Shown here: piece after piece, positions 4,131 through 59,795 of the stretch | Layout: each line of letters opens with the position of its first letter | Numbering within the stretch: the stretch's first letter is position 1 | Virus record (IMG/VR): IMGVR_UViG_2974506496_000001 | Span: 192,001 to 256,000 of that record | Reading direction: 5' to 3' (one strand) | DNA length: 64,000 bases | From: a virus | Lineage: Duplodnaviria > Caudoviricetes | Made by a program: the position numbers and the translations under genes | Notes under the pieces: model-generated | Told to the model about the DNA's origin: nothing | The model's database searches: none | The model's input: only the letters and a program-made list of their open reading frames with translations

Positions 4131-4161
4131 AGAGGAGGGTGAAAACCCTCCTCTTGTGCCG
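4131..4161 (+). terminator. Hairpin with TTGTGCCG tail (variant of the hairpin-TATGCCG family)
   Basis: AGAGGAGGGT-GAAA-ACCCTCCTCT then TGTGCCG. Confidence 0.7.
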
Positions 4162-4479
4162 TCCACGGACTGGGCTATAGCTCACGCTTACTCCCCAGGG
4201 TATGGGCGATTCAAACGCCGACATTTCAGGAAGAATACGCGCAAGCGACCCCCACGGCCATGTAAGAATAAAAGTAAGTTGATGAAGGTGGCTCAGAGTA
4301 AGTTGGGTTATGCGATCATGACAGGCAGGGTAATCAGGCAGGCAGTATGTGATGAGTGTGAGGCGGATGAACGTATCGAGCCTTTGCAAGTCAATTATGC
4401 TAAGCCGTATATCGTGCTGTGGCTTTGTCCACGTTGTCATGCTGACTGGTACCTGACAAATGAGCCGGCGTACAGCTGA
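4156..4479 (+). CDS. Small Zn-binding HNH-like protein, apparently degenerate
   Basis: CDEC...YAKP..VLWLCPRCH pattern. Start uncertain (GTG 4156 or ATG 4282). Confidence 0.5.
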   Translation: MPSTDWAIAHAYSPGYGRFKRRHFRKNTRKRPPRPCKNKSKLMKVAQSKLGYAIMTGRVIRQAVCDECEADERIEPLQVNYAKPYIVLWLCPRCHADWYLTNEPAYS

Positions 4480-4501
4480 GGGTTTCGGCCCTCCTTTATG
4501 A
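4478..4501 (+). terminator. Hairpin with CTTTATGA tail
   Basis: GAGGGT-TTCG-GCCCTC then CTTTATG. Confidence 0.6.
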
Positions 4502-4510
4502 TACCAAGAG

Positions 4511-4909
4511 GTGACAATGTTTGAAGAACCGACACATGTTCGTTATGCATTGGTAACCCGCCCTCAACACGATGAGAAGGTAACACTGACACCCTGTGAT
4601 AATCTGATCGAAGCGGTACACAAACAAGACCGTTACGATTCGATTGCTTCTGTGGTGATCTGTGATGACTTCAAAGCGCAGGCGGTGGATGTCCGGTTAC
4701 ACTTTATCACGGGTCCGGATGACTCGGCGTACCGTGCAAAGGAAATGTTACTGGCTTCTTTTATACGCCAGAACAATGGTTGGATTCCCCGTCATGTTAC
4801 GGGCTGTATGATAGACGCTTTTGATGACGAGACCCTTACCTTCATCCAAAGCCTACTATCTTTCTTTGATTCACACAGAACCAATTTTGCTCGTTCGCTT
4901 GCTTCGTAA
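4511..4909 (+). CDS. Hypothetical protein
   Basis: 132-aa ORF; AAGAGG RBS suggests a start at ATG 4517. Confidence 0.6.
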   Translation: MTMFEEPTHVRYALVTRPQHDEKVTLTPCDNLIEAVHKQDRYDSIASVVICDDFKAQAVDVRLHFITGPDDSAYRAKEMLLASFIRQNNGWIPRHVTGCMIDAFDDETLTFIQSLLSFFDSHRTNFARSLAS

Positions 4910-4917
4910 TTTTTATT

Positions 4918-4953
4918 GCTGGATGCGGTAAACCCGCTCCAGCCCTTATGCCG
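4918..4953 (+). terminator. Hairpin with CCTTATGCCG tail
   Basis: GCTGGATGCGG-TAAAC-CCGCTCCAGC then CCTTATGCCG. Confidence 0.7.
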
Positions 4954-5009
4954 CCTGTAATATCGTACATTATTCTACTATCTATTAGAGGAACAAATAA
5001 TCTTAAATA

Positions 5010-5028
5010 TTTACAAGCCTACATTATC
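5010..5028 (+). promoter_or_regulatory. Candidate early (virion RNAP) promoter CCTACATTAT
   Basis: Same motif recurs at 10159, 21353 and 29011; it resembles the phiKZ early consensus TATATTAC. Confidence 0.5.
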
Positions 5029-5086
5029 AACATGTCATAGCAGTATGTGATTTAACCTACCGTGTGATCACCGGGAGCAGCCACCA

Positions 5087-6631
5087 ATGATGTTTAAGTA
5101 CACCACCAAATCGACCTCTGAGAAGGTATGGTTAAACACAATCATAGTTGTCAGTCGTCATGGCGAAGAGATTGTGTTTAACGAAAACAACTTCTTCAAG
5201 TCGGAAGAGAAGGACCACAAAGGAACCTTCGACGAACTGAATCTCTATCTCTTGCGTTGCCTGAGTAACGAGCAACGTGACCGGATGTTTGAGTTCTATA
5301 AGCAAATCAGCTATATCCTGAAAACGGAACTGTCGGTCACGAAGGTCCTTCTGCCAAAGTTGCAGCCTTTGGTTAAAGGGATCTACGACCTGGTTAGCTT
5401 AAGCGACCTGAACGTCTTCATGTATGAAAACAAACTGACGCACATTCCGAACAGCGTACTGGATACCATCCCGTCCTCGAAAGAGTACCCGACGATGACC
5501 ACGTATGTGAAAGCGGATTACGTTAAGCTGGTTAACCTGTCGGTGTTGTTGCATCTGATGGCGCCGATCATCGCGGACTATGTCAGCAAGGTCAGTGAGT
5601 CAACCGGCAAGCAGTTTAAAGAACACGCCGCCTTACCGTTACTGGAATACACCAACATCATGTATTCTGATGAGATGGTCAAGCTGCGTAACTTCGTGAC
5701 CGCCAACTGCAGTAAAAAGCCGGTGCCGTTATCAGCCACCTTAGAAGGGATGTCAGAAGAGTCGTTCCCGGATTGGATGCTGGCGTCGGTCATTGCACGT
5801 AAGCTGTGTATCAACCATGTACGGCGTGGGGATGAGAACGGACACCTGGTCGCTGCGGTGTTTGCCTACATCAACTACAACATCAAACTGGATGGTAAGT
5901 TTGGTGGCGGAGTCATGCCAAAGAAAGAGCGTCGGGGTCTGGGAGAAGATGAACGCGAGAAAGCGGTCATTGATAACTGGAAGATGAAAGAGGATGTGGA
6001 CAAGATCGATATCTTAGCCTGTGCTGTTGGCTTTGATGATCCGGTTGCTGCTGCCAAATTCATTGAGCCTGACATCGATCCAAACATGGTGATCCGTTGC
6101 CTGAATGCGATTCCACAAGCCTGGAACTTCAGCATGACTCGTCATCAGAGCATTCTGTTGCAGTGGGTAGTGGGTGAGCTTCTGCCGCATATCGGTGATA
6201 CGTATGTGCCGCCGTTGACCGTTGAGTATTACGATTACGATGTCTGCGTGAAGTTGGTCGGGATTGCACAAGCGGTACTGTGGCATCGGGGTTATCCGAA
6301 GCTTGCAGTGTTTGCTGCGACTTATCCGTCTGAAGTGGATGCCGGCGGGATGCCGAATGCCGTGATGCCATTAGAACTGAAAGTGATGGCAGAGCTGGAA
6401 GCGTATTACGGTAATGTGCGTCTGGGTAAACGTCAGGACAGCAGCGATGGCTTGGTGCATAAAACCATCAACACCATGGTTACCTCATTGTTAGAAGATG
6501 ATTATCAGGTCGTAGGCCCTGATGAATTGTTAGCGTTATCTGGGGTGGTAGATTTCGAACGTCGAATCGTCATTCCTGAAAGCCTATATTACGATATTGC
6601 TGGCTACATTCGTTTCTTAGCCACTCGTTAA
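5087..6631 (+). CDS. Non-virion RNA polymerase promoter-specificity subunit (phiKZ gp68-like)
   Basis: 514 aa; size and position (three co-directional genes upstream of nvRNAP beta-C) match phiKZ gp68. Called by synteny. Confidence 0.7.
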   Translation: MMFKYTTKSTSEKVWLNTIIVVSRHGEEIVFNENNFFKSEEKDHKGTFDELNLYLLRCLSNEQRDRMFEFYKQISYILKTELSVTKVLLPKLQPLVKGIYDLVSLSDLNVFMYENKLTHIPNSVLDTIPSSKEYPTMTTYVKADYVKLVNLSVLLHLMAPIIADYVSKVSESTGKQFKEHAALPLLEYTNIMYSDEMVKLRNFVTANCSKKPVPLSATLEGMSEESFPDWMLASVIARKLCINHVRRGDENGHLVAAVFAYINYNIKLDGKFGGGVMPKKERRGLGEDEREKAVIDNWKMKEDVDKIDILACAVGFDDPVAAAKFIEPDIDPNMVIRCLNAIPQAWNFSMTRHQSILLQWVVGELLPHIGDTYVPPLTVEYYDYDVCVKLVGIAQAVLWHRGYPKLAVFAATYPSEVDAGGMPNAVMPLELKVMAELEAYYGNVRLGKRQDSSDGLVHKTINTMVTSLLEDDYQVVGPDELLALSGVVDFERRIVIPESLYYDIAGYIRFLATR

Positions 6632-6666
6632 CTTAATTTAATCTACACCGTTAGGAGTCACCCAAG

Positions 6667-8184
6667 ATGTTACCTACCCAAAACATTCAGTTCGAAGGCT
6701 ATGTTGAGAAAGCTGCTATCTGCCGTACACCAGCTTATCAGGACATGTACCGTCGACCGTACAGCATGAATATCAGTCAGGACACCGCATCCGTTATTGG
6801 TAACATGAGTGCCGGTGTGGATTATTCTCGTGAGCGTTTAGCGCCGATTGCCGCATCGGTCATTGCGCCACAGACTTACGTTGAATCGGTTTGTAACGTA
6901 CCAGAGGGCTGGGGTTCTGAGCGTTGTCTCTTCATTCTGAAGATCGTTCACGGTCGTCCGGGTGACCAGGGTCTGAACAAACGTGTGCAGTATCTGACCG
7001 GCTACACCAGTCACATGGGCATGATGCCAAGTCAGATGCGTGCGAATGATGTTGTTGTTGATGACAACATGCGTCTGTTCTTTAACACCAGTATGCTGTT
7101 TAACGAAACCAGCCATATCGATGGCTATGGTCGTAAGCTCGTCACCGCCATGCCGTTGATGGCAAGTCAGTTGGTAATGGGTCAGCACGGCGGGGTGCAT
7201 GGTCATAACGATCGTACGTTGCGTCCTGAAGATGTTTACTCAGCAATCAATGTTGGGCAACTGATTCAGCAGAACAACCAGTATGATCAAAGCCGTGGTA
7301 CCAATGGTCCGATTGGTCAGCTGTATGATGGTCGTACTGCTTTCCAACCTGGTCAGCCGTATAAGCTTTCTCAGCTGAATAACCTGGTGCCTTCAAACTA
7401 CCTCAGTAAAGTGCTGACCGGTGCAGCCACCGAACAGCTGACCTTAGGTGGTCAACGTGCAAACCCAGCGGATACCAGCAATCAGATCGCAACTGGCCTG
7501 AACGAAGGTTATCTGTCTAACGACCTGACCCTACAGCACATCCTGGATCGCACTGGTCTGCGTGAAAACTGCTCAATCACATTTGGTGAATTGCGTCGTA
7601 TTCTGCCGAACATTGATGCACCGGGTATTTTGACCAAAGCGGGTATGGAAGGTGTCGGTACTGGTCAGGTTGCCGGTGCAGTAGGTGGTGCTGGTTCTGA
7701 ACATCATCAGGGTTCGAACTATGAAACCGTGATTGCCAACATGCTGAACAATGTGACCACTGCACTGATGATGGATCTGATGATCGGCGAGATTCATTGT
7801 AATGGCGGTAACATGACCGTAGCCGATGTGGCGACTGGTACAATGAGCGGTCAGTTCCTGTTGAACACGCCGTACGCAACTTCCTTCGTGGACGGTCGTG
7901 ATGCGGTGGCGTTGTGTGAATCGTTTAAGCTGCGTCTGGTGCGTGAGTTCCTGTCAAGCTTTACCGGCCACAACCACGTGCCAATCGGTTTTGCAATCCA
8001 TGCAAGTCTGATGGCCGAAACGGTTATTGATGTCTCTTACAATAACCAACCGAAGATTCGCTTCGTGTTCCCGGTCTTTGCGAACGCGTCCTATACCCCG
8101 ATTATCACTGGCGATCAGAACACTCTGAACTCCATTGCCGTACACACACGTGAACTGGTCCAGCAGCTGACCAACGTCTTTTAA
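6667..8184 (+). CDS. picA: Phage-nucleus protein import factor PicA/Imp1 (phiKZ gp69-like)
   Basis: 505 aa, AGGAG RBS, directly after the gp68-like gene as in phiKZ. Called by synteny and size; no catalytic motif to confirm. Confidence 0.6.
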   Translation: MLPTQNIQFEGYVEKAAICRTPAYQDMYRRPYSMNISQDTASVIGNMSAGVDYSRERLAPIAASVIAPQTYVESVCNVPEGWGSERCLFILKIVHGRPGDQGLNKRVQYLTGYTSHMGMMPSQMRANDVVVDDNMRLFFNTSMLFNETSHIDGYGRKLVTAMPLMASQLVMGQHGGVHGHNDRTLRPEDVYSAINVGQLIQQNNQYDQSRGTNGPIGQLYDGRTAFQPGQPYKLSQLNNLVPSNYLSKVLTGAATEQLTLGGQRANPADTSNQIATGLNEGYLSNDLTLQHILDRTGLRENCSITFGELRRILPNIDAPGILTKAGMEGVGTGQVAGAVGGAGSEHHQGSNYETVIANMLNNVTTALMMDLMIGEIHCNGGNMTVADVATGTMSGQFLLNTPYATSFVDGRDAVALCESFKLRLVREFLSSFTGHNHVPIGFAIHASLMAETVIDVSYNNQPKIRFVFPVFANASYTPIITGDQNTLNSIAVHTRELVQQLTNVF

Positions 8185-8198
8185 GGAAAAGATAAACC

Positions 8199-9743
8199 AT
8201 GACAACTCCACTTATTAACTATTACACGGGCTTCCTGGAATCGACGGGCGCTGTGATTGATCAGTCCACCGGTGTGGTGAGCTATGAACGTTCCACCGGT
8301 TTAAAGCCGGTGTTAATCGATGGCAAAGAGCTGATCCTACCCATCCGTGCGTTTCAGGATAAGCCGGACTGGACGCGTTATGTACCATTCCATCCGCTGT
8401 CTGAATCGATTGCTCGTGGTGAATCGGAAGTGCTGCAGAAAGCCAAAGAGCTGATCAGTCTGAAGCTGTTCCTGAAATATGCGGAACTGTCTGAAGCGCT
8501 GCTGATGCTGGCAGTGAACTCTGAATCGCAGGCGAAGCTCACCCCTACCCAGATGAAGTTCCTGGAAGGGCTGGGTGATGCGGATGAGAAAACGGTTGAG
8601 AACTTCTCAAAGATCCTGGCGAAATCCAAAGCGACCTTTGAAGGTGGTGAGAACCGTTGTCTGGTGTCGTTGTTCCTGAAACGTGGCGGTACACTCAACG
8701 GGCAGAAGTTTGCCCGTCTGTGTGTTGTAGCGTTCCCGTACTACGAAGCGCTGTGTAAGATCGAAAACGAACCTGCGGATAAGCGCGTGGTGTTTGGTGT
8801 GCCATTGCGTGCCAAAGACATCAAAGTGCTGAAGCGTCTGCATGAAGTGATCGTACCGAACAGCGATGACGGGATCTACTCGATCGGGACTAACGTACAG
8901 ACTGCGCCGTACTGGGGTGCATTGATGATGACTTACGTCAACATCCTGAACCAGTTCAACAGCGTAATCAAACCGTTCTCGAAAGTGATCAAATCGCTGA
9001 AGGCGGTTGATACCTCGTGGGATGTGGGTGATGAGTTGCAACAGTTCCGTGCTGAGATTCCACCGATGCCGTATAATGAAGGTGCAGATTCCAGCAAACC
9101 AGCTGAAACAACCCAGCCTCTGCAGACCCAACAGCAGCCTGTTGCGACGCAGCCACAAACCATCCCACAGCCAACCGGTAATCTGGTACAGCAGCCAGCA
9201 ACCATCCAGCAGGCGCCGAGCTTTAACGGTAATCAGAACCAGTCCAGCACAGTCACCCATCCGCCAGCTCACAACGTTAAACCATCTAACGGTGGCGGTG
9301 TGAACTTCGCTGATGCGATGAACAAGTCGGGCATGGGGATGATGCCACAAATGCAGATGCCAGGGATGATGCCACAGATGTATCCTCAGCAGGGTTACCC
9401 ACAGCAGCAGATGCCAATGTATCCGCAACAGCAAATGTATCCTCAGATGCAGATGCAAATGCCGATGCAGCAGCTTCCAATGCCACCGGTCTCTCAGCCG
9501 CAGGGTCAGCAGCAATTCCCGCAGCAGATGTATTATCAAAATGGTCAGTTGCCAATGCCGCCGGTTAGCCAGCAGCAACAGCAAGGTTACCCACAGCAGG
9601 GCATGTATCCTCAGCAGCAGATGATGCAGCCTCAAATGTACCCGCAGATGCAAATGCCTGGCATGATGCCACAAATGCAGATGCCGGGTATGATGCAGCA
9701 GGGTTACCCGCAACAGCCACAGATGTTCCAGTTCGGGCGTTAA
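8199..9743 (+). CDS. phiKZ gp70-position protein: folded N-domain plus long Q/P/M-rich low-complexity C-tail
   Basis: 514 aa; the last roughly 215 residues are dominated by Q, P, M, Y and G. Confidence 0.75.
   Translation: MTTPLINYYTGFLESTGAVIDQSTGVVSYERSTGLKPVLIDGKELILPIRAFQDKPDWTRYVPFHPLSESIARGESEVLQKAKELISLKLFLKYAELSEALLMLAVNSESQAKLTPTQMKFLEGLGDADEKTVENFSKILAKSKATFEGGENRCLVSLFLKRGGTLNGQKFARLCVVAFPYYEALCKIENEPADKRVVFGVPLRAKDIKVLKRLHEVIVPNSDDGIYSIGTNVQTAPYWGALMMTYVNILNQFNSVIKPFSKVIKSLKAVDTSWDVGDELQQFRAEIPPMPYNEGADSSKPAETTQPLQTQQQPVATQPQTIPQPTGNLVQQPATIQQAPSFNGNQNQSSTVTHPPAHNVKPSNGGGVNFADAMNKSGMGMMPQMQMPGMMPQMYPQQGYPQQQMPMYPQQQMYPQMQMQMPMQQLPMPPVSQPQGQQQFPQQMYYQNGQLPMPPVSQQQQQGYPQQGMYPQQQMMQPQMYPQMQMPGMMPQMQMPGMMQQGYPQQPQMFQFGR
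9341..9730 (+). repeat. Coding imperfect repeats (MPQMQMPGMM, YPQQ, QLPMPPVSQ)
   Basis: ATGCCACAAATGCAGATGCC occurs near 9342 and 9666; QLPMPPVSQ occurs twice; YPQ recurs many times. Confidence 0.85.
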
Positions 9744-9757
9744 TCTATAAATCTGAT

Positions 9758-9790
9758 CGGCATAAGGAGAGGCTACGGCCTCTCCTCTTT
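9758..9790. terminator. Bidirectional hairpin at a convergent junction, CGGCATAA on the left
   Basis: CGGCATA-AGGAGAGGC-TACG-GCCTCTCCT-CTTT. Confidence 0.8.
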
Positions 9791-9795
9791 CAGAG

Positions 9796-10131
9796 TCATT
9801 TTTTATTTGAGTTGTAGAGATCTCTAATAGATGACAGAAGTGAACTGTTTTCATCTATTAGAAGAATGTCCGTTGTAATGACATCCCATTTAAAGGGATT
9901 CATGATGTTGTTGATTCGCATAGTTAACCAATGCATGTGATAAGGAACGCCGTATTCCAGTAGTAGCATGCGAAAGTCACCACGTTCTTCGTACTGTTCA
10001 AGAGGGGTAGGGGGAGTAAACTTAGTTGCATTCGCCCGAAGCAAATCGAGATGATGCACCAGGACCTGACGAAAGCCGTGATCTTGAAACAGCTTATCGG
10101 TCGGGTGTTTGATTTCGTTGCTGACTCGCAT
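9796..10131 (-). CDS. Small protein with LysM/T4 gp53-like pattern (putative baseplate component)
   Basis: 111 aa; GDFRMLLLEYGVPYHMHWLTMRINNIMNP resembles the gp53/LysM helix-W-x4-N-x-I-x-[DN]P pattern; has a minus-oriented terminator. Confidence 0.5.
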   Translation of the reverse strand: MRVSNEIKHPTDKLFQDHGFRQVLVHHLDLLRANATKFTPPTPLEQYEERGDFRMLLLEYGVPYHMHWLTMRINNIMNPFKWDVITTDILLIDENSSLLSSIRDLYNSNKK

Positions 10132-10152
10132 ATGCGTAAATACCTATACTTG

Positions 10153-12313: not shown

Positions 12314-12320
12314 GGGGTGT

Positions 12321-14291
12321 GTGATGCAAAGCTATCATTGGCGTGATCTGTTGTCGATGTCTGAGGAGCAGATTTGGCAACTTGATCCTGCAATCAACAA
12401 CCCAATCATTGAAGTGGTGGCAGAGGATGCCACCTTCAAGATTCCTGCCCGACAGGTTATCGGTAGCTGGTATTGCTGGCCGTTTCAAAAGCTCTATCGC
12501 AACATGGTGTTGTGTAAGCGTCATTTCATCACAGCGTTTCGTCTGTCGAACAAAACCATCCTGGGGATCATGACCAACGGTTATCGTGATTATGATGCGA
12601 TGATGAACGGCACTATCTTAGATGTCGTGGCATTAAACAGCTTGATTGCGAAAACGGCGAACCGCATTAACAATGCGTTTGTCACCAAGATCCCAGAGTA
12701 TGTCACGACCTCGGGCATGAAGCAGTATATTGAAATCGTGGATGACCCTGAGTTTAAAGCGATTCGTGATGCAATGGAACCTAACCAGAACTCGATTCGT
12801 GATGGTTATGATGCGTCACTCAAACTGCTGATGGACCCGAAGAAGTATGTCGGTAATCAGGTGGCGGAGTATGTGAAGCAAGGATCAGCATCAGCAGGCC
12901 AGGCATTACAATGTCTGGTGGTGCGTGGTTATCTGACTGACCATAACTCGCGTATCTTTGTTAAGCCGGTCATGGGTAACTATGTCGAAGGGCTGGGTAA
13001 GTTCTACGACTCGTTCGTGGAATCACGCTCAGCAACCAAAGCGGCGTTGTTTACCAAGAAACCCCTGGAAGACTCCGAATGGTTTAACCGTAAAATGCAG
13101 CTGGTTGCACAAGCGGTGCAGAAGATCCATCTGGGGGAGGATTGTGGGTCGACGATAACAGTGCCTATTGTTATGCGTCGTGGCTGGGCAAGTGCGATGG
13201 CCGGTACGTATTATCTGGATGATGATGGATCGTACAAAATGATCACGGAAGAGGACAAGCATCTGGAGAACCGGTTACTCAATATCCGCTCTCCGATGTA
13301 TTGTAATCATCCTGACCGTACCGGTATCTGTGAGCGGTGTTATGGGAAGTTAGCGGTATCCATTCCGTACTTCAATGTCGAAGGGAAAGTTGGGGATAAC
13401 CAGGTGATCGTGGGGCACGTCAGTGCAACGGAAATCGGTGAGGATCTCTCACAGAAGATGCTGTCAACCAAACACCTGGATACGTCCTCGACGGTAGATC
13501 CGTTTGCTATTCGTCGTGCCGATGCGTTGTATGTGAAACCAGGCTTGCGTGAAAACGCCATTCGCCTGAATCCACGTCTGCGTAATGAAAAGGTCACGAT
13601 GAAGGTATCTTTCGACAAAACTACCGCATTATCTGATATCGCAGTTGCCGAAAACTTAGATGAAGTAGCAACGCGTGTTTCCGGTTTCAATGAGATCGTG
13701 CTGGAGTTTGAGCGTGAAGATGGGGGTAAAGAGTCTATCCCAATCAACACCACCCAGGGTTCTCGTCAGGGTCAATTCACTGTCGACTTCCTGCGTTACT
13801 TGCAGCGCGTAAGCTGGACGAGTGCGGACAAAGATTATATCTCTATCCGTCTGGATCAATTTGAATATGATTGCGATGTGGTTGAATTGCCGTTAGTGCA
13901 TGAAGACATGATGGCGTATCAGAAACAGATTGAATCCTACATCCGTTTCAGTAAGGAATCAGCGAATTGGAAAAACAAGTTTGTCACGCCGGATGAAGTG
14001 GGTGTGGTACTGGATGAGTTCTTCTCGTTACTGCGTCAGCGTTTGGGTGTGAACATTGTTCATGCACAGATCATGCTGTATTCAGTGATGACCATGGACC
14101 CAGCCAAAGGCGACTATCGTCTTCCGCGGGCGTATGAACCACGGCAGTTCTCTTCCTATCACGAATGTATCGAGTACCGTTCTCTCTCGGTCCAGCTCGT
14201 GTATCAGGAACAGGCTGCGGTGATGCTGAAGCCGTCCACTTTCCTCAATGACAAACGACAACCGCACCCGATGGATGAAATCTTCAAATAA
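12321..14291 (+). CDS. Non-virion RNA polymerase beta' subunit, C-terminal part (phiKZ gp74-like)
   Basis: RpoC motifs DCGS, RSPMYC...GICERCYG (Zn site) and trigger-loop-like VGHVSATEIGEDLSQKMLSTKH. Confidence 0.9.
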   Translation: MMQSYHWRDLLSMSEEQIWQLDPAINNPIIEVVAEDATFKIPARQVIGSWYCWPFQKLYRNMVLCKRHFITAFRLSNKTILGIMTNGYRDYDAMMNGTILDVVALNSLIAKTANRINNAFVTKIPEYVTTSGMKQYIEIVDDPEFKAIRDAMEPNQNSIRDGYDASLKLLMDPKKYVGNQVAEYVKQGSASAGQALQCLVVRGYLTDHNSRIFVKPVMGNYVEGLGKFYDSFVESRSATKAALFTKKPLEDSEWFNRKMQLVAQAVQKIHLGEDCGSTITVPIVMRRGWASAMAGTYYLDDDGSYKMITEEDKHLENRLLNIRSPMYCNHPDRTGICERCYGKLAVSIPYFNVEGKVGDNQVIVGHVSATEIGEDLSQKMLSTKHLDTSSTVDPFAIRRADALYVKPGLRENAIRLNPRLRNEKVTMKVSFDKTTALSDIAVAENLDEVATRVSGFNEIVLEFEREDGGKESIPINTTQGSRQGQFTVDFLRYLQRVSWTSADKDYISIRLDQFEYDCDVVELPLVHEDMMAYQKQIESYIRFSKESANWKNKFVTPDEVGVVLDEFFSLLRQRLGVNIVHAQIMLYSVMTMDPAKGDYRLPRAYEPRQFSSYHECIEYRSLSVQLVYQEQAAVMLKPSTFLNDKRQPHPMDEIFK

Positions 14292-15863: not shown

Positions 15864-15900
15864 TAAAAGACCAGGGGGCTTACTCCTTGGTCTTTTATGC
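15864..15900 (+). terminator. Hairpin with TTTTATGC tail
   Basis: AAAAGACCAGGGGG-CTTA-CTCCTTGGTCTTTT then ATGC. Confidence 0.75.
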
Positions 15901-15937
15901 TTTCTTTCCTTTTCTTTTTGTTAAGGATACACAGCTT

Positions 15938-20630: not shown

Positions 20631-20841
20631 AGTTAACATCGAGCAGGCCAATCGTTATGAGGGGTCTACCGATGATTTGGTCCAGCAAGCTAATGATCGT
20701 GGTTTTCTCCAGGGGATTCGTATCACTTCTGGCGAGGACATCGATCCAAGCATTTGGACACCTGAGAAGATCGAAAAGTTGAAAGCTGCACTTCGACATA
20801 TTCGTGACTCAGAACAACGCATCAAAGGTAGCCAGGGGTAA
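20611..20841 (+). CDS. Hypothetical protein
   Basis: Likely GTG start at 20611 after GAGGG; ends at a hairpin. Confidence 0.45.
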   Translation: MDTNPTEVNIEQANRYEGSTDDLVQQANDRGFLQGIRITSGEDIDPSIWTPEKIEKLKAALRHIRDSEQRIKGSQG

Positions 20842-20859
20842 CACCCTGGCTTTATGCCG
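20830..20859 (+). terminator. Hairpin with TTTATGCCG tail
   Basis: AGCCAGGG-GTAACA-CCCTGGCT then TTATGCCG. Confidence 0.75.
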
Positions 20860-22574: not shown

Positions 22575-22607
22575 AGGCAGGGGGAATACTCTCTGCCTTT
22601 ATTTTTT
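22575..22607 (+). terminator. Intrinsic terminator
   Basis: AGGCAGGGGG-AATA-CTCTCTGCCT followed by TTATTTTTT. Confidence 0.75.
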
Positions 22608-22678
22608 GTGGTATTCTGCCACAGAAAACTACTGGCCATACTACCAGTGGTATTCACTCAATAGACTGCGAGGAATAA

Positions 22679-23653: not shown

Positions 23654-23705
23654 CGGCATATAGGCCCTCCGTAATGGAGGGCCTTTTATGACATCTTTTT
23701 TTTTT
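23654..23705. terminator. Bidirectional hairpin at a convergent junction
   Basis: CGGCATAT-AGGCCCTCCG-TAA-TGGAGGGCCT-TTTATGAC then T10. Confidence 0.8.
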
Positions 23706-30568: not shown

Positions 30569-30597
30569 AGGAGAGCTTCGGCTCTCCTTTTATGCCC
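30569..30597 (+). terminator. Hairpin with TTTTATGCCC tail
   Basis: AGGAGAGC-TTCG-GCTCTCCT then TTTATGCCC. Confidence 0.8.
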
Positions 30598-32097: not shown

Positions 32098-32204
32098 TCG
32101 GCATATATTCTGTCTCGTTAGCGTAAGCTCGCTAAAAACCCTTTTAAAGTTTTGTATAACAAACTATCAACTTTGTAGAAAGAAACAAATAGGAAATTAA
32201 TCTC

Positions 32205-32915
32205 ATGTTGCATGAAAACTTTGAAGCCTTAGTGGCGAACATCGCCAACCAAATCAATCAGCTGGAACCAGAGGATCTGCCGTCACTGATCCTGACCAAG
32301 AGCGAGGTCTACATCAACGACAAGCGACACGATCGCACGCGTCTACTGCTGAACCTGTTTACCCCACAACCCGGGCACACGCACGACGTGACCTTCGATC
32401 AAGAGCTGCAGGATGCCTTCGCTCACAACAACCTGGAGTTTATCAAAGTCGGTGAAGGGATCGCCTACGGACTACTGCGTACCAGTATCGTTAACAACGA
32501 ACCCGCGGTGTTCTGGATTCACGCCGATGTCTCCGATGATGCATCATTACTGAAGCAAGCCTGGGACATCATCACCGACCTGAAGAAGAATGCGGGTTAC
32601 CCCCAGGCGTTTAACATTGACGTGCTCGACGTAAGCTGGCATGCGTTAAGCTGGGCACAACTGCTGGGGACTTTGCTTGACCGCACTGACCCGACCCGCC
32701 GGTTCCGTTTGGCAACTAACCCCGATTACGATTTTGTGTTATCCCAGAAAGCCATCACGTACTACCAGGAGACGTTGAGTAAACGTCCGATGGCACCGGT
32801 TGCTTACCTCGATGACACTAACCTGTTTAATGGTGGCGACTTTAACGACAGTGATCGCAACTGGGCAATCGCCCCGAACGACAGCACCCGCCCTATCGTG
32901 AAGGTGTATGTTTAA
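32205..32915 (+). CDS. Hypothetical protein
   Basis: 236 aa, AGGA RBS after an AT-rich leader. Confidence 0.7.
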   Translation: MLHENFEALVANIANQINQLEPEDLPSLILTKSEVYINDKRHDRTRLLLNLFTPQPGHTHDVTFDQELQDAFAHNNLEFIKVGEGIAYGLLRTSIVNNEPAVFWIHADVSDDASLLKQAWDIITDLKKNAGYPQAFNIDVLDVSWHALSWAQLLGTLLDRTDPTRRFRLATNPDYDFVLSQKAITYYQETLSKRPMAPVAYLDDTNLFNGGDFNDSDRNWAIAPNDSTRPIVKVYV

Positions 32916-35782: not shown

Positions 35783-35834
35783 CAGCATAAGGAGAGGCCT
35801 CGCGCCTCTCCTGTTTATGCCGTCTTTTTTTTTT
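35783..35834. terminator. Bidirectional hairpin at a convergent junction
   Basis: CAGCATA-AGGAGAGGC-CTCGC-GCCTCTCCT-GTTTATGCCG then a T run. Confidence 0.85.
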
Positions 35835-36337
35835 TACACTAAAATGCCGTTAAAGGCCACCGGGTCATTAGCCAGGAATGGATTGTACCGAACCACGGAC
35901 CCTAATGTGTAATCGTAATAGATGAAATCCAAGCATTGCGCACCCTGGTAGGTAGTCCATGACTTTGATAGATAACCATTGCGATCTAACGCAACGTAAG
36001 CTGGGCGGCTTGACAACGGAGTAAACTTCATCAACACTTGTGGCTGGTTGTTGAGGTTGTTTGTAAATACAGGCAGGGAAGGATGCGCATGCCTTGCAAT
36101 GGAGCACAACCAAGAGTCGTAGGTAAACCACTCTTTATACGGCGTGCCGTACATGTTGTTGGATGTGTTCAATGTAGTATTAACATATTTACCGGCATTG
36201 GCGGACATGCTGGTACTCGCGTTCGCTACCTTCGTATATTTGGCGGCATTGGCCGCAAGCCACGCCTCGAATTGTGCATAGGTCATCTTAGTACCTATCT
36301 GTGGCTGTGACTTACTGCCCATTAACATCTCTAACAT
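35834..36337 (-). CDS. LCCL-like domain protein (paralog 2)
   Basis: MYGTPY..FTYDS.LC.IARHA and RNGYLSKSW. Confidence 0.6.
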   Translation of the reverse strand: MLEMLMGSKSQPQIGTKMTYAQFEAWLAANAAKYTKVANASTSMSANAGKYVNTTLNTSNNMYGTPYKEWFTYDSWLCSIARHAHPSLPVFTNNLNNQPQVLMKFTPLSSRPAYVALDRNGYLSKSWTTYQGAQCLDFIYYDYTLGSVVRYNPFLANDPVAFNGILV

Positions 36338-36349: not shown

Positions 36350-36859
36350 TTAGATCAACACCCCGTTAAACGGTACCGGTGTGCCGCCATTTAACGGAGT
36401 CCACCGCATCACAACACCCTGGGTATTGTCGTAGTAAATAAAGTCAAGCACAGTACGCCCATTAAATGATCCGTAAGACAAGCTGGTGTAACCGTTACGA
36501 TTGAGGCCTGAATAGGCACTTTTGGTAACATAAGGTCCAAGCTTCATTAAACAAAACTGTTTATTCGCCAACATGTAATCAAACATCGTTTGTGCCGGAC
36601 ACGCATGTCGTGCGATCCTTGCCCAAGTTGAATCGTGAGTACAGGAGTTTAAATAGGGAGTACCCCACATGTTACCGCCATCAGCCGTCATGGAGATCCT
36701 GGCATAGCCGTTCGTAAACGTGGTGGACGACGGAGTGCCTGTATTCGACGCTGCACTGACCGCACTGTACTTAGTGGTATTGGTATTTAACCAAGTAACA
36801 AAATCCGCATAGCTCATCTTTACAGTTTTCTTGCCAGCGTACATTAATAACTCGAGCAT
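36350..36859 (-). CDS. LCCL-like domain protein (paralog 1)
   Basis: MWGTPY..CTHDS....IARHA and YSGLNRNGYTSLSYG; GAGG RBS. Confidence 0.6.
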   Translation of the reverse strand: MLELLMYAGKKTVKMSYADFVTWLNTNTTKYSAVSAASNTGTPSSTTFTNGYARISMTADGGNMWGTPYLNSCTHDSTWARIARHACPAQTMFDYMLANKQFCLMKLGPYVTKSAYSGLNRNGYTSLSYGSFNGRTVLDFIYYDNTQGVVMRWTPLNGGTPVPFNGVLI

Positions 36860-36930: not shown

Positions 36931-36960
36931 CGGCATAACGGAGCAGGCAACGCCTACTCC
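36931..36960 (-). terminator. Minus-strand hairpin with TTATGCCG tail
   Basis: Minus strand GGAGTAGGC-GTT-GCCTGCTCC-GTTATGCCG; the G-U pair forms only on the minus strand. Confidence 0.7.
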
Positions 36961-38035: not shown

Positions 38036-38079
38036 CGGCATAAGGGAGTGGATACCCTGACCGTAGCCAAGGTATCCAC
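38036..38079 (-). terminator. Minus-strand hairpin (UACG loop) with TTATGCCG tail
   Basis: Minus strand GTGGATACCTTGGC-TACG-GTCAGGGTATCCAC-TCCCTTATGCCG. Confidence 0.8.
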
Positions 38080-44429: not shown

Positions 44430-44481
44430 CGGCATAAAGGCCTGGCCTTCCTTGCGGAGGGCCAGAGCCTTGCTTATGCCG
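44430..44481. terminator. Bidirectional hairpin at a convergent junction
   Basis: CGGCATAA-AGGCCTGGCCTTCC-TTGC-GGAGGGCCAGAGCCTT-GCTTATGCCG. Confidence 0.85.
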
Positions 44482-54173: not shown

Positions 54174-54184
54174 ACGGAGAAAAC

Positions 54185-55555
54185 ATGTCCGCGATTAATG
54201 ACTTTCTATTTACTGCGGGCATGGAGGGGTTTAACGACCCCTCCTCTATACCGCCCGTTGGTATAGTTGTGCCCTTTTTTGGTGTTGAGGAGTTCGCCGA
54301 AGCGGATGCTGAACAATCTGTACGTATGACAGAGATGAACCAGCAAGCCGAAGCAATTCAACGCCTGCAACAAACGCTGGTCTACATCAACGCTCACCGT
54401 CCGACCTTTGACCGTGAGAATGCTGCCGTCGTGCAGCAAGCACTGGGTGAAGTGCAGGTACTGATGCCCGACATGGAAGACCCGGTCACCATCATGGGGT
54501 CGCTGGAGCATTATACGCCGGCTTACACCAACCACCTGCTTGCGCACGGTATTGAAGGCATTGGTGATAAGATCCTGAGCGTGGTCAAGAAGATCATCGA
54601 ACTCTTGAAGAAAGGTTATGCCTTCTTGAGTAAAGCCATCCAGGCAAAGGGTGTGGTCTTCGGTAAACAGAAGCGCGAACTCGATGACCTCAATGCGTGG
54701 TTTAAAGAGCAACGCAAAAGCAACGATAAGCCCGCTACCACCACCGGTAATGAACCTAAGGTTGTTACGGTCACTGCCCCGACCTATCTGTACACCGTCG
54801 ACAGTAACAAACCGTTAGCGGCAGATCGCTTAGCAAGCGAAGTGGCAAAGTACAATAAATTCCTGCAGGCCTTCTCGGTTGATTTCATCCGGGCGCATAT
54901 TACCCTGGGTGATCTCTATATTCGTGCACTGGGTAGTCTGGATATTGCCAGCACCAGTAACGAAGAGTTGTTCACCAAGATGTTTAAGGGCCAGTTTAAA
55001 TACCAGGCCTCGGGTGCATCGCTGTACACCAAACGCAACGGCGAGATGTGTGATATCGAAACAGTTGGGTTGATTGGCGGGATTGGCTTTAAAGCCTCCA
55101 TCGCGAATATCCTGGTCGCACCGCTTGAGATGACTGCAGACGGTTCTAACCAGCGTAAGTTCTTCAAGCAGATGAACGGGTTATACAACTACAGTTTTGT
55201 CTCCAAAATAAAAATGGATGGCAGTACGGTAGGGAATACCCCAATCTATGCTTGCAGTCTCGCTGACGCTGAGCGGTTGGTGAATCAACTTGATATGTTG
55301 ACCAACTGGATGATTAACAGTCAACACGACGAAGAGATCCGTGACTTTAATAAGCGGGTGACTGAGTGTGTGGATAAGCTGGCTGATCGTGCCGGTCGTC
55401 TGGGTAATGACCGCAGTGATTTTATCACTACTGTGATCAACGCCTTGTCTGGTATCTCCAGTGGTCTGGAAAATGTGTCTCGTGGCATGAATCAGCAAAC
55501 GAACACATTGATCAACAACTTGCGTGAGTACGTTACCAAATCCACGAAAGCGTAA
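54185..55555 (+). CDS. phiKZ-like internal head protein, paralog 3
   Basis: AGME-GF, SLE-HY and GIE-GI sites. Confidence 0.75.
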   Translation: MSAINDFLFTAGMEGFNDPSSIPPVGIVVPFFGVEEFAEADAEQSVRMTEMNQQAEAIQRLQQTLVYINAHRPTFDRENAAVVQQALGEVQVLMPDMEDPVTIMGSLEHYTPAYTNHLLAHGIEGIGDKILSVVKKIIELLKKGYAFLSKAIQAKGVVFGKQKRELDDLNAWFKEQRKSNDKPATTTGNEPKVVTVTAPTYLYTVDSNKPLAADRLASEVAKYNKFLQAFSVDFIRAHITLGDLYIRALGSLDIASTSNEELFTKMFKGQFKYQASGASLYTKRNGEMCDIETVGLIGGIGFKASIANILVAPLEMTADGSNQRKFFKQMNGLYNYSFVSKIKMDGSTVGNTPIYACSLADAERLVNQLDMLTNWMINSQHDEEIRDFNKRVTECVDKLADRAGRLGNDRSDFITTVINALSGISSGLENVSRGMNQQTNTLINNLREYVTKSTKA

Positions 55556-55648
55556 ATTATTATATGTGTTAACGGCCCTGCAGGAAACGCGGGGCCTTAT
55601 CACAATACGATCGTATTTAATTTCATGAAATTAAGGTAGAGACTCACT

Positions 55649-57004
55649 ATGTCTATTCAAGCATTTTTAAACCTCGGCGCCGAGGCTTTCGAAGACGCAC
55701 CGGTTGTTGAAGAAGCACCGGTTGTAGTTGTTGCACCAGTACCAGAAGAAGTGATCGAGCTGATTGCCGAGCGTGATGATTCGAACATCGCCCTGGCTAT
55801 TGCTCAGGATGCGGCGGCAATGTCTGCTGCTGAGCGTCAGGTGGAAGAGTTTGCTTCCGCAATCGAGCGCGTTGAAAATGTCCAGGCATCAATGGAGCAC
55901 TTCATCGAAGCGGGCCTGTCGCAGAAATCAGCAATGATGCTGCATCGCCAGATCTCAACAGTTATGGCATCTGTCGGCAAGGATGGCAGCGCCATCGGTG
56001 GCGGTCTGGAAAACTTCGACAACGAAGAAGCCAGCATTGCACTGCTGACCGCTGGTCTGGAAGCACTGGATGCCGAGAAAGCCGATCTGTCCTCCCGTGC
56101 CGGTGCATCTATTGCCGGTATCGCTGGTAACATTAAAAGCTTTCTGGGCAACATCAGTACTCAGGCCGGTCGTTATAAACTGCGTGCTGAAGCGATCGTT
56201 AAATCTGCTGACGGCGCTGAAGCCAAGTCCGGTACTGTTGAAGTAAAAGATAAACACCTGGTTGTAAAAGGTGGCAATCCATCAACTAACCTGAAAGGCG
56301 ATCTGGGTAACTTCAGCAAGCTGGTTGGTGCGGCAATCGCTACCTTCATCGAAGGCGATATCGTTAAAGAAGGCAGCGCCCTGGCAAAAGCTGGCGAGAC
56401 CATCATTAAAGCGACTACCGCTGATGTGGCAGTGAAAGCTGCAATGGGTGTGAAACACAATCCATTCCCGGGCGCAACCATCGCAGTGCAGGACAAAGAC
56501 ACCTTCAGTATCAAACGTACTGAAGTGGTTCTCGGCGGCTATGCGGTATTCGATCTGCAATATAAAGCCACCGGCGGCGAAGGTGCTGAAGCAGCTGTTG
56601 CGCATCTGAATGCACTGAGCAAAAACCGCGTTACTCTTCGTCAGGCTCCAGTTGAAGCTGGTAGCGAGAAAGTATTCTCTGCCACTATGTCTCCGGCCGA
56701 TGGCGCAGCACTGGCGAAAGATGTTATCGCAATGCTGGACAACATCACAGCGGTCAATAACCGTAGCCTGGGTGCGGTAAGTGGTGCACTGGCCCGTCTG
56801 GGTACCAGCGTTGTGTTGAAAGGTGCTGTGGCGAAAGACGCAGACAAAGACGTGAAGAAAATTGCTGGTGCCATGGGTAAAACCCTGGTTGGTTCTATCC
56901 AGGCTGTTAACAGTCTGCCACGCGATGCCCTGAGCGCTGCGCTGAAAGTGTCTGATGCTGTACTGAAAGTTGCTAAGAAAGCTGCTGCAGGTCAAGTAGA
57001 CTAA
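55649..57004 (+). CDS. phiKZ-like internal head protein, paralog 4 (probably abundant)
   Basis: GAE-AF, SME-HF, GLE-NF and AGLE-AL sites; strongly biased codon usage; own upstream regulatory region. Confidence 0.75.
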   Translation: MSIQAFLNLGAEAFEDAPVVEEAPVVVVAPVPEEVIELIAERDDSNIALAIAQDAAAMSAAERQVEEFASAIERVENVQASMEHFIEAGLSQKSAMMLHRQISTVMASVGKDGSAIGGGLENFDNEEASIALLTAGLEALDAEKADLSSRAGASIAGIAGNIKSFLGNISTQAGRYKLRAEAIVKSADGAEAKSGTVEVKDKHLVVKGGNPSTNLKGDLGNFSKLVGAAIATFIEGDIVKEGSALAKAGETIIKATTADVAVKAAMGVKHNPFPGATIAVQDKDTFSIKRTEVVLGGYAVFDLQYKATGGEGAEAAVAHLNALSKNRVTLRQAPVEAGSEKVFSATMSPADGAALAKDVIAMLDNITAVNNRSLGAVSGALARLGTSVVLKGAVAKDADKDVKKIAGAMGKTLVGSIQAVNSLPRDALSAALKVSDAVLKVAKKAAAGQVD

Positions 57005-57024
57005 TCGAGTAACTTGACAACCTT

Positions 57025-57058
57025 AGGGGGAGAGGGGTTTCCCTCTCCTCTTATACCG
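57025..57058 (+). terminator. Hairpin with TTATACCG tail
   Basis: GGGGAGAGGG-GTTT-CCCTCTCCTC then TTATACCG. Confidence 0.75.
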
Positions 57059-57075
57059 ACCAAGAAGGTGAATGC

Positions 57076-59418
57076 ATGTCAACCATGACAGAACTGGGTC
57101 CGTCACAAGGCACACTCCTTGCGGATGAGAAAGCAGTACACGATGACGCGGCCACCGAAGCCACCGAAGTTGCACTCCACGTATTAAAGAAGATTGGTAA
57201 GAAGAAAGAGAAAGATGACGAGGATGAAGAGGTCGTGCTCTCCTTTGGTAGCGAAGGCTATGCCATGCTCACCAGTATGTCATTTGATCTGACTGAGAAC
57301 TCCGATCTGGCCGTACAGGAACTCCTGGATAAGATCACCACCATCGTCATTGAAGCAAATGGCAATCTCACGCAGAAAGATCTGGAGAAGATCAAGAGTG
57401 TGGGGAATGAGTCGTTATTAGGCGATGGGAATGAAGACTATAAAGAAGTCGTCACCATGGTCATGAAACGGATCATGCAATTCATTCGCTGGGCGATCAA
57501 CCAGGGTAAGGAAGGGATCAAACGGGTTGCTGACCGCTTGAGTCGTCTGAGCGTGAAGACGATGTATGTTGAGCGTAAGATCGATATCTCCACTGACAAC
57601 TCATTGCCGACTGACAAGTTTGTGTTACCGCGCAGCTATCCAATGCTGATGATGGTGAACAAACCACCGGCCAATGCCATGGAAGTGATTAACGCCGTCA
57701 ACCGCACCAAGTATCTCTTCACCACGCTACATAACGACTACCAAGGCTTCCAGGCGTTGTTTAAGGCAGCGGTAGCCACTGGCTCTCGGGCTGACACCTT
57801 AGAGATGATCAACAACTATCTCAACGGGTTGATCAGTAAGCTCTCAGCACGCCCTAACCCACTGTTCGATAACCGCAATACCTTTAACCAGTTACCGGGT
57901 GGGTATCGTCTGGTGTTCTCAGAAGGTCAGTCGTTTGCGGATTGTGGGGCAACGATCCTGCGTACGCCGGAGAAATACGAAGCCGCACCGGCGGTTCAGC
58001 GTCCAGATAAAGCGAGTCTGGTACGGTTGGTCAGTGAGATCAAAACCTACCTGCGGGTGATTAACGAAGTCTACGGTAAAGTCTCCAGTCGGTTGGAGGT
58101 TGATTTCCGTAACATCGTGAAAGCCGCTGAGAAAGAAGTGAAGGGGTTTGATTCAACAGCAGATATCCGCACTGCCTCGACCACCATCGAATGGTTCACC
58201 GAACAGCAGTCACGCCTGTATACCCGCTCAATGATGCTCTCTTGTACGGTATTGAATGCCGCGCTTGATTACTGTCTGGGTGCCATTGGGGCGAAACCGG
58301 CTGTCGGGACCGAAAGCTTTGATATCCTTGATACCTCATCAATGGGTTATGCGATCGAGTCGCTGGGCGAGCAAATGGAACGGCTTGACGCTGGCTTGTG
58401 TGAACTGGAGATCGATGCCCGTACTATGCAGTCGATTACCGATGTCAAAGAGATGGTAGATGTCGATAACGATCACGTCATCCAGCTTCTGATGCAACAG
58501 CGCCCAAGCAGCTATTTCAATCCACCGGATGGACTGTCAGAGTACTCGCTGGGTGATGCCTTTAACGGCAGTGCTACGGCACGTTATATTGGCAGGCGTT
58601 TAACCAGTATCGTTAACCTCACGAATCAGCTCTCAGGCACCACGGATTTGATGAAAGGGTTATTGGCTGAAATGCCAACGGGTGAGATCAAGCCAGGCAG
58701 TGATGCGGATGTAATCGAGCGTAACTCGTTGCTTGACCGGGAGATGTTTGAAGGTCATCCCCTGTGTGCGTTCCTGCATCGGGTAGACCGGGAAGGTATC
58801 TACGCCACCGATGTGATTCGCTATGTTACTGACACCTATGAGAAACTGCGTCAAGTGCGCACGACTCTGGCGGTTCAGGCTGAGCAGATGACACTAACAG
58901 TGGCTGATGGTGAGATGAACGTGAGCTTGTTGAAAGAGTTCCTGTTTAACGCCCCTCAGGAGCCCTTCACGGACAGCGTACTCTGTGGTGGATTCAGACT
59001 ACAACCTGTAGCAGAAAAGCTCGGAGAACTCGTTATACACGGTGCTGTGATGGATTCCCCTCCACCACTGAAACCGATGACGACTATCCATCGCCCAAGC
59101 TACGACGAGTATAATGGTGTCAACCAGCTGGCAAGCCTGTTCGGTAATGAACTGCGGGAACTGGCTAAGATCGCAGAGCGGCTACAAATCGGCACAGGGT
59201 ATTTGCGCTACATCACAACCTCAGTAGCGGACAACCTCAATGAGGATGGCTTGAAAGGGGGTGGTGATGGTTGGTTCAATACTGCACTTGAGTACTTGGC
59301 GGTGTCAGCACGCCAGTATCGCTGGATGTATCGCCTAACTGTTCAGTTGGCGGTGTATGAACACACCATGATCAATGCCCTGCGTCACTACAACAACTCA
59401 GGAGGCTGGCATGACTGA
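57076..59418 (+). CDS. Large internal head protein, possibly two tandem modules
   Basis: 780 aa; GSE-GY, GNE-SL and GNE-DY near the N-terminus, and GTE-SF and AIE-SL mid-protein. Confidence 0.65.
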   Translation: MSTMTELGPSQGTLLADEKAVHDDAATEATEVALHVLKKIGKKKEKDDEDEEVVLSFGSEGYAMLTSMSFDLTENSDLAVQELLDKITTIVIEANGNLTQKDLEKIKSVGNESLLGDGNEDYKEVVTMVMKRIMQFIRWAINQGKEGIKRVADRLSRLSVKTMYVERKIDISTDNSLPTDKFVLPRSYPMLMMVNKPPANAMEVINAVNRTKYLFTTLHNDYQGFQALFKAAVATGSRADTLEMINNYLNGLISKLSARPNPLFDNRNTFNQLPGGYRLVFSEGQSFADCGATILRTPEKYEAAPAVQRPDKASLVRLVSEIKTYLRVINEVYGKVSSRLEVDFRNIVKAAEKEVKGFDSTADIRTASTTIEWFTEQQSRLYTRSMMLSCTVLNAALDYCLGAIGAKPAVGTESFDILDTSSMGYAIESLGEQMERLDAGLCELEIDARTMQSITDVKEMVDVDNDHVIQLLMQQRPSSYFNPPDGLSEYSLGDAFNGSATARYIGRRLTSIVNLTNQLSGTTDLMKGLLAEMPTGEIKPGSDADVIERNSLLDREMFEGHPLCAFLHRVDREGIYATDVIRYVTDTYEKLRQVRTTLAVQAEQMTLTVADGEMNVSLLKEFLFNAPQEPFTDSVLCGGFRLQPVAEKLGELVIHGAVMDSPPPLKPMTTIHRPSYDEYNGVNQLASLFGNELRELAKIAERLQIGTGYLRYITTSVADNLNEDGLKGGGDGWFNTALEYLAVSARQYRWMYRLTVQLAVYEHTMINALRHYNNSGGWHD

Positions 59419-59758
59419 TAACAGTAACAAGGCGTTGTATAATGCAGCGCGCTTGCCTGTTCTTTACGAGTACCCGCATGACTTCACCCCGTATGCCCGT
59501 TTACTGGCTAACGAGAAGCAAGGCGCACAACCTTCGCAGGCGTTTGCTGAGATGCTGGCTAAGGTAACGGGTGATCCCTGGACACTGACCCCTAAGCAAC
59601 CGTATACCCTGTACGGTGCCAAGGTGACGTTGATTGGTGAGAACCAGCCCAACTTCCCAACCAGTAAACGGTTTCCTTACGTCCTGGTGTTGCAGTTGAG
59701 TACCAGGTATCAAGAACGCAAGTTATACCTGAGCTTTAAGATCTTGAAATCGAGCTGA
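59411..59758 (+). CDS. Small putative virion protein
   Basis: Start moved to ATG 59411 (GGAGG RBS). Confidence 0.55.
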   Translation: MTDNSNKALYNAARLPVLYEYPHDFTPYARLLANEKQGAQPSQAFAEMLAKVTGDPWTLTPKQPYTLYGAKVTLIGENQPNFPTSKRFPYVLVLQLSTRYQERKLYLSFKILKSS

Positions 59759-59795
59759 GCATAAGGAGAGGGCAAACGCCCTCTCCTCTATGCCG
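59757..59795. terminator. Bidirectional hairpin at a convergent junction
   Basis: GAGCATA-AGGAGAGGGC-AAAC-GCCCTCTCCT-CTATGCCG. Confidence 0.85.

Follow-up and report, generated by a model that had tools for sequence, protein, structure and literature searches.

We analysed a 64,000-nucleotide (nt) stretch of viral DNA (the window; positions 192001-256000 of the 271,182-bp genome in IMG/VR record IMGVR_UViG_2974506496_000001, 50% guanine plus cytosine (GC)) that holds a family of 14 intergenic GC-rich hairpins, most of them followed closely by the tail TTATGCCG or a variant of it. These units are very probably transcription terminators of the type described in phage phiKZ; we infer, in addition, a role for the GCCG of the tail in pausing and release of the polymerase. 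Three lines of evidence carry this assignment: the tails follow the direction of the preceding gene throughout the genome, the stems are built to fold as RNA on the tail strand, and the mapped transcript ends of phiKZ fall inside the corresponding tail.

Judging from nucleotide identity, the source is a phiKZ-like jumbo phage, an Agricanvirus infecting Erwinia amylovora. A 12-kb stretch of the window showed 98.1% identity to Erwinia phage vB_EamM_Deimos-Minion (Deimos-Minion) and 96.6-98.0% to three further E. amylovora phages. Erwinia phage AH06 was more distant, with ~81% identity across the 68% of the stretch that aligned. The records of two relatives were opened, Deimos-Minion and AH06, and both are classed as Agricanvirus. 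Their syntenic annotation includes split RNA polymerase beta-type subunit genes, a DNA polymerase and phiKZ-like head proteins. A reading of the window made from the sequence only had assumed a phiKZ-like jumbo phage, and both the classification of the relatives and the syntenic polymerase and head genes bear this out; the genome is of the phiKZ-like kind that has multisubunit RNA polymerases of its own. A search of public sequencing runs for the window returned no RNA run and one non-RNA run that contains the DNA.

Hairpins and tails in the window

All 14 stem-loops named in the sequence-only reading folded, with minimum free energies (MFE) ranging from -8.2 (the unit at 4478, the weakest) to -27.8 kcal/mol (44437; Table 1). 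The tail TTATGCCG was present as eight exact matches against 1.63 expected, a number that none of 100 shuffles reached, so that the proposed association of GC-rich hairpins with (T)TATGCCG-type tails holds. The shorter TATGCCG occurred 16 times against 6.9 expected. Ten of these matches adjoin a hairpin, and the six that do not (16733, 24665, 27344, 32099, 40204 and 49324) equal the chance expectation in number. Two sites that had been listed as weak or imperfect tails are best read as chance, the one at 4098 lying ~25 nt from its stem and the one at 32099 ~12 nt from a merely weak hairpin. At 15864 the hairpin stands, and the tail TATGCTT, which is not conserved in AH06, is doubtful. Ordinary U-tract hairpins lacking the tail are present as well, at 221 and 22575, as had been noted. 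Rfam gave no matches in the window at the gathering score.

The side on which the tail stands agrees with gene direction in the Deimos-Minion annotation. It lies to the right of the hairpin after plus-strand genes (4946, 20852 and 57052) and to the left after minus-strand genes (36931 and 38036). A hairpin is found at all five convergent junctions (9743/9796, 23651/23717, 35769/35834, 44427/44474 and 59758/59796), and four of the five carry tails on both sides, the exception being the hairpin at 9765, which has a minus-strand tail only. G-U pairs and a UACG loop had been taken to mark the minus strand at 36940 and 38048, correctly, the stems there being more stable on the tail strand. The AGGAGAG core ascribed to several stems is also real, since of the 69 tailed hairpin strands in the genome 14 contain GGAGAGG and 10 contain GAGGAGG; it is common to the stems through their purine-rich 5' arms (60 of 69 units).

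Tail orientation across the genome

Direct scans for hairpin plus tail were run on the whole genome, on phiKZ and on IMG/VR loci. They were used instead of a covariance model because the stems are non-homologous and variable in length. Among intergenic hairpin strands with a cut-off of -11 kcal/mol or better, 69 of 152 had TATG within a few nt of the stem, compared with 3.2% of random positions and 15 of 323 hairpins inside genes. Aligned on TATG, the 69 gave the consensus T-TATG-C-C-G: the first base after TATG was C in 57, the second was C or T in 64 and the third was G in 49. A strong upstream fold accompanied 46 of the 66 TATGCCG sites in the genome, and no other trinucleotide following TATG came near this among 1,375 TATG sites. 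Intergenic TATGCY stood directly after a hairpin of -10 kcal/mol or stronger in 72 of 102 cases, of which 47 were one-way and 25 in mirror pairs.

We then classed hairpin strands by the presence or absence of an incoming gene and of a downstream gene on the same strand. TATGCY was found on 34 of 82 strands with both; at convergent junctions, where a gene arrives but none lies downstream, the count was 23 of 31. Overall it marked 57 of 113 strands with an incoming gene and 2 of 57 without (Fisher p = 5e-11), so the orientation proposed for the window is correlated with gene direction genome-wide. The tail tracks the arriving transcript and is commonest where there is no gene downstream to promote. 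This result was obtained with a second set of gene calls based on codon usage; a cruder first set, which mis-assigned some junctions (e.g. 20830 and 23662), gave the same picture.

Tails and late promoters

In phiKZ, TATG is also the core of the late promoter, with +1 at the G, necessary although not sufficient (Yakunina 2015, PMC4666361; PMC12809450). A pocket in the beta-like subunit GP123 binds the non-template TATG (de Martin Garrido 2026, PMC12809450). The tail could then be a late promoter, the non-virion RNA polymerase starting at its G for the next gene or, at convergent junctions, in antisense. This would be in keeping with a proven core bound by GP123, with the occurrence of a GP123 homolog in the present phage, and with co-directional junctions, where a start codon often follows the tail at a distance of 20-70 nt. 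The homolog is an open reading frame (ORF) at genome positions 1001-2689, outside the window (tblastn E = 2e-48, 26% identity); overall it is about 26-27% identical to phiKZ GP123, and it shares 7 of the 14 residues published for the TATG pocket (S144, F151, K158, K190, H331, S334 and Q466 in phiKZ numbering), among them the Phe stacking on the G. However, tails reach their highest frequency at convergent junctions, with no gene ahead to be promoted, and the distance from tail to next start codon varies from ~0 to more than 130 nt. A GC-rich stem just upstream would also be expected to hinder promoter melting. We consider a promoter role of the tail very improbable.

Mapped phiKZ start sites and a second class of TATG point in the same direction. 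Among 25 phiKZ late start sites, taken from part of the published table, five had any hairpin within 80 nt upstream and only one lay within 10 nt of a hairpin (at 6 nt), which is not a mapped terminator. Late starts near phiKZ terminators use another TATG, 11-30 nt downstream. TATGs without a hairpin make up a class of their own in the Erwinia phage: in 23 of 61 a start codon follows at 30-49 nt, the upstream sequence is AT-rich, and the next base is mostly T or A, not CCG. Those at 30-49 nt are candidate phiKZ-type late promoters. Examples of hairpin-free TATGs in the window are found at ~26727 (-), 39825 (+), 48507 (-) and 283 (+), with ~26727 and 48507 in divergent regions. The tail thus shares with the phiKZ late promoter its four letters and the same strand sense relative to transcription, whereas promoter TATGs have no upstream GC hairpin, stand ~30-50 nt before start codons and continue with T or A. 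The tails, with a GC stem upstream and a peak at convergent junctions, do not fit a TATG start upstream of a gene in meltable DNA. The antisense initiation that the sequence-only reading had kept as an alternative is unsupported because of the phiKZ start sites, the separate TATG class and the variable distance between tail and start codon, and tails are commonest without a downstream gene. A hairpin plus TATG acting as a stop-and-restart module was also considered and was rejected on the phiKZ start sites in the same part of the table.

Stems act as RNA

At the 47 one-way sites, the stem was more stable on the tail strand in 39 cases and less stable in 8 (mean difference -2.3 kcal/mol, p = 2e-5), and mirror-pair sites showed no strand bias in stem stability. 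The tail strand had 34 G-U pairs, the opposite strand 2. The strand-specific stability and the G-U bias therefore indicate that the stems act as RNA, not as DNA palindromes. These counts bear directly on a DNA-level explanation, under which CGGCATAA-stem-TTATGCCG would be a palindrome to which a protein binds, or a cruciform, serving replication, recombination or a regulator. Two-way copies are indeed near-perfect long palindromes, and three hairpins are identical as 26-mers. But two thirds of the sites (47 of 72) are one-sided, their tails track gene direction, and G-U pairs, which are mismatches in DNA, are tolerated on the transcribed strand only. We give this explanation next to no credence.

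Conservation in relatives was examined at orthologous junctions of AH06, where tails persist while stems change, by compensatory substitutions and inversion, and flanks diverge. A pattern scan of IMG/VR gave 118 hits, with the module inside hairpins in 32 loci and 86 chance matches outside hairpins. Several of the loci with the module are on uncultivated viral contigs of 218-310 kb.

Two further observations concern how the stems vary. At window positions 23662-23684 and 44437-44471, compared with 12807-12861 and 32777-32822 of AH06 locus L018, the outer stem and tails are fixed, whereas the loop and inner stem occur in exactly inverted form; such inversion within a palindrome is what strand switching or recombination would be expected to leave. 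In addition, a 26-nt hairpin, AAGGAGAGGGCAAACGCCCTCTCCTC, is found in three identical copies at three convergent junctions (genome 119161-119186, 154371-154396 and 251763-251788, the last being window 59763-59788), with near-identical copies of the form AGAGGAGGAGCAAA(C/T)GCTCCTCCTCT at genome 95948 and 171094. The three identical 26-mers suggest copying or strong convergent selection of terminator hairpins.

Transcript ends and a proposed mechanism

We placed 76 published phiKZ 3' ends on the phiKZ genome. A hairpin stood within reach of 56 of them, with TATG in 27 cases. All 27 ends at TATG hairpins fell inside the tail: counting the first T of TATG as 0, two were at position 0, eight at 2 (after TAT), seven at 4, nine at 5 and one at 6. 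The last RNA base was a pyrimidine in 71 of the 76 ends, with G over-represented as the next base among non-A.

These positions suggest a mechanism. The nascent RNA would fold into the GC-rich stem-loop and be released within the next 3-8 nt, inside UUAUGCC. The short U-rich UUAU would replace the long U-tract of bacterial terminators and give a weak hybrid, and the two pyrimidine-G steps (U to G and C to G) would serve as pause and release points. Pyrimidine-G steps favour pausing in cellular polymerases, and pausing at these two would account for the two conserved G positions in the tail. At convergent pairs, a single hairpin with mirror-image tails would halt transcription from both sides.

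Several points weigh against termination at these units. The gene calls used here are ORF-based and contain some errors, and about half of the post-gene hairpins have no tail, so that the tail is not obligatory. The 3' ends assumed for the Erwinia phage are extrapolated from its relative phiKZ, where mapping by ONT-cappable-seq does not distinguish genuine termination from the action of an exonuclease that trims the RNA as far as the hairpin. The end-base counts are partly technical because a terminal A is indistinguishable from added poly(A). Release could also occur further downstream, for example at the runs of T that lie 8-15 nt past many hairpins. When tail-less hairpins were compared by phiKZ operon class, the counts were 1 of 4 for early and 13 of 27 for middle or late operons, too small to link use of the tail to a polymerase class.

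The runs of T have a regular arrangement of their own. The genome has 26 runs of at least seven T, of which 19 are plus-strand and intergenic, nearly all of them 8-15 nt after a GC hairpin. These runs take the form C-T(8-11)-(G/A)(G/T)T, often past the tail; examples in the window are at 245-267, 23696-23705 and 35825-35835. At most of the convergent junctions with such a run, it stands on the plus-strand side. The phiKZ terminators T016, T019, T025, T033 and T034 have the same arrangement. The runs are too distant from the stem for a classical U-tract.

Some of these features would also suit a protein-read tag at the RNA 3' end, made of the hairpin and UUAUGCC and serving stability, processing or export from the phage nucleus, with transcription stopping elsewhere and the mapped ends arising from processing. 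The conservation of the tail far exceeds what hairpin-driven termination needs, the tail recurs in phages that differ in host and in GC content (37% and 50%), mapped phiKZ 3' ends retain UUAUG(YY) on the RNA, and the runs of T further down could be the true release sites. Yet no binding protein is known, and the one relevant data set, from enhanced crosslinking and immunoprecipitation (eCLIP) of ChmC, a nucleus-associated RNA-binding protein of PhiPA3, gave binding near start codons and no motif. Moreover, eight terminators of phage 201phi2-1 block a reporter in the uninfected host, so these modules work without phage proteins. As an explanation in place of termination, the tag appears improbable to us, although tag and terminator roles are not mutually exclusive.

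Comparison with known signals

The closest match to the terminators proposed here is published. Mapping of phiKZ transcript ends by ONT-cappable-seq identified a stem-loop followed by TTATKYYGT at 61 terminators, together with six two-way terminator regions (Putzeys 2024, microLife, PMC10914365). The phiKZ terminator table includes CATAA-hairpin-TTATG pairs and runs of T after the tail (bioRxiv 10.1101/2023.10.13.562163). Our own scan of the phiKZ genome gave the consensus GGG..GG-cTTATG-ttgT. The Erwinia-phage units have the same parts, namely a GC-rich stem-loop directly followed by (T)TTATG, two pyrimidines and G, a position after genes in the direction of transcription, mirror tails with two-way placement at convergent pairs, and, in some, runs of T past the tail. 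After stems the tail takes the form YTTATGCCG, that is, a direct TTAT and then K-Y-Y-G as in the phiKZ-type motif of the Chimalliviridae. They differ in a sharper tail (CCG against K-Y-Y) and in reversed stem polarity, the 5' arm being rich in purines in 60 of 69 units of the Erwinia phage, whereas in phiKZ it is rich in pyrimidines in 50 of 92. The host (Erwinia) and the genome GC content (50% against 37%) are different as well, and the mapped 3' ends are those of phiKZ alone.

A similar signal has been described in 201phi2-1, for which 132 terminators were reported, 15 of them two-way; motif A, present at 59 sites, "strongly resembles" that of phiKZ (PMC11512511). Eight 201phi2-1 terminators were active in uninfected Pseudomonas chlororaphis, blocking downstream reporter expression (PMC11512511). 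The likeness of motif A to the phiKZ motif is the authors' own description, the logo being given as a figure only. In all likelihood, then, hairpin plus TTATGCCG is the Erwinia-phage version of the transcription stop signal known from phiKZ and 201phi2-1. Because the element was published for both phages in 2024, it is not new, and its presence in an Erwinia phage was to be expected. The Agricanvirus genome paper dropped its MEME and FIMO motifs as insignificant and contains nothing on the hairpin-tail element. The sequence-only reading had suggested a phage-specific 3'-end signal. Its terminator part stands on the orientation statistics, the strand-specific stability and the phiKZ ends; "phage-specific" is doubtful because the eight 201phi2-1 terminators stop transcription in uninfected host cells.

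Like a canonical Rho-independent terminator, the units combine a GC-rich hairpin with a transcript end a few nt past the stem. Unlike it, they have no long U-tract but 2-4 U interrupted by A, followed by the conserved GCCG. The uninterrupted U-rich tract of ~7-9 nt right after the stem that marks the canonical type is absent, the runs of T standing 8-15 nt from the stem. Sequence-specific viral stop words include the phage T7 class II signal (ATCTGTT) and the vaccinia early signal (UUUUUNU). There, as proposed here, a viral RNA polymerase halts at a short conserved word and not at a generic U-tract, but those signals act without an adjoining hairpin and have no sequence similarity to TTATGCCG.

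TATG as a possible shared start and stop word

A more speculative extension, which we think unlikely, is that the non-virion RNA polymerase uses TATG for both start and stop through the same GP123 pocket. At late promoters, the beta-like subunit binds the non-template TATG at -3 to +1. During elongation, 5-7 nt after the hairpin, the same TATG contact would hold the enzyme at the point where the RNA ends in UAU and the next base is G, and the hairpin would release the held enzyme without a U-tract. Such a shared word would explain the conservation of TATG from Pseudomonas to Erwinia phages, the eight phiKZ ends that fall between TAT and G, and the avoidance of TATG in coding DNA. The eight ends lie exactly at this step, and the Erwinia GP123 homolog retains 7 of 14 pocket residues at 27% overall identity. 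Against it, the TATG pocket is described as incomplete in the transcribing complex (PMC12809450), most mapped phiKZ ends lie 2-3 nt beyond the step between TAT and G, and the terminators of a relative, 201phi2-1, also stop the host polymerase (PMC11512511).

The coding DNA of this phage has 265 CATA against 498 expected, second in depletion among 256 tetranucleotides, with TATG ranking 14th. In phiKZ, TATG ranks fifth and CATA fourth of 256. This depletion is consistent with the phage keeping chance late-promoter cores off both strands. The words TTTT and AAAA are likewise depleted on the sense strand of coding DNA.

The hairpin-plus-TTATGCCG rule provides a simple marker of transcription-unit ends and a check on gene orientation in this phage family, which is useful for annotating jumbo phages, where most genes have no known function. 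Purified phiKZ polymerases exist, so the conservation of GCCG and a possible link between stop and start at TATG are directly testable. Settling the matter of GCCG and TATG would clarify how unusual five-subunit polymerases terminate.

Units in the window

Table 1. Hairpin units of the window, with tails, stem stability and the state of each unit in phage AH06. Positions are window coordinates; energies are in kcal/mol.
Unit	Strand	Hairpin	Tail and adjoining bases	Junction	MFE	Stem, tail strand / opposite strand	AH06
4131..4161	+	4131-4154	variant, TGTGCCG	between two plus-strand genes	-18.6
4478..4503	+	4478-4493, weak	CTTTATGATA (TATG core only; variant, TATGATA)		-8.2
4918..4953	+	4918-4943, bulged	CC spacer, exact TTATGCCG 4946-4953		-16.0
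9758..9786	-	9765-9786	minus-strand TTATGCCG 9758-9765; plus side without tail	convergent; minus-strand gene is gp252 in Deimos-Minion annotation			hairpin and tail identical
15864..15902	+	long, four plus-strand G-U pairs	TATGCTT and pyrimidine-rich tract; tail doubtful		-20.7	-26.0 (plus) / -14.3	tail is TACACAT
20830..20859	+	20830-20851	exact TTATGCCG 20852-20859	overlaps plus-strand gene end			hairpin kept with base changes; tail is GTTATGCCA
23654..23705	two-way	23662-23684	left CGGCATAT (minus-strand TATGCCG); right TTTATGACA, then C-T10	convergent			compensatory change of a stem pair, loop flipped, both tails kept
30569..30597	+	30569-30588, UUCG loop	TTTATGCCC		-13.6		tail identical
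35783..35835	two-way	35790-35812	left CAGCATAA; right GTTTATGCCG, then TC-T11	convergent			inner stem and loop differ; tail and T-run same
36931..36960	-	36940-36960, one minus-strand G-U pair	TTATGCCG 36931-36938			-16.1 / -10.0	flanks unalignable, yet hairpin and CGGCATAA there
38036..38079	-	38048-38079, 14 bp, UACG loop, G-U pairs	TCCC spacer, TTATGCCG 38036-38043		-23.9	-25.3 / -16.2	tail conserved
44430..44481	two-way	44437-44471, long	left CGGCATAA; right TTATGCCG 44474-44481	convergent; right tail overlaps stop codon of minus-strand gene	-27.8		inner stem inverted, left tail kept; compared stretch stops before right tail
57025..57058	+	57025-57051	variant, TATACCG	next start codon 18 nt on	-20.3		same variant
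59757..59795	two-way	59764-59787	left GAGCATAA; right CTATGCCG	convergent	-19.8		identical
220..267	+	U-tract type	no tail; directly T8, then C-T9
22575..22608	+	U-tract type	no tail; then TTATTTTTTG

One neighbouring gene differs between the phages. The minus-strand gene at window 36350-36859, gp289 in Deimos-Minion, has no counterpart at the syntenic position of AH06, where the genes flanking the hairpin-plus-tail unit stand adjacent.

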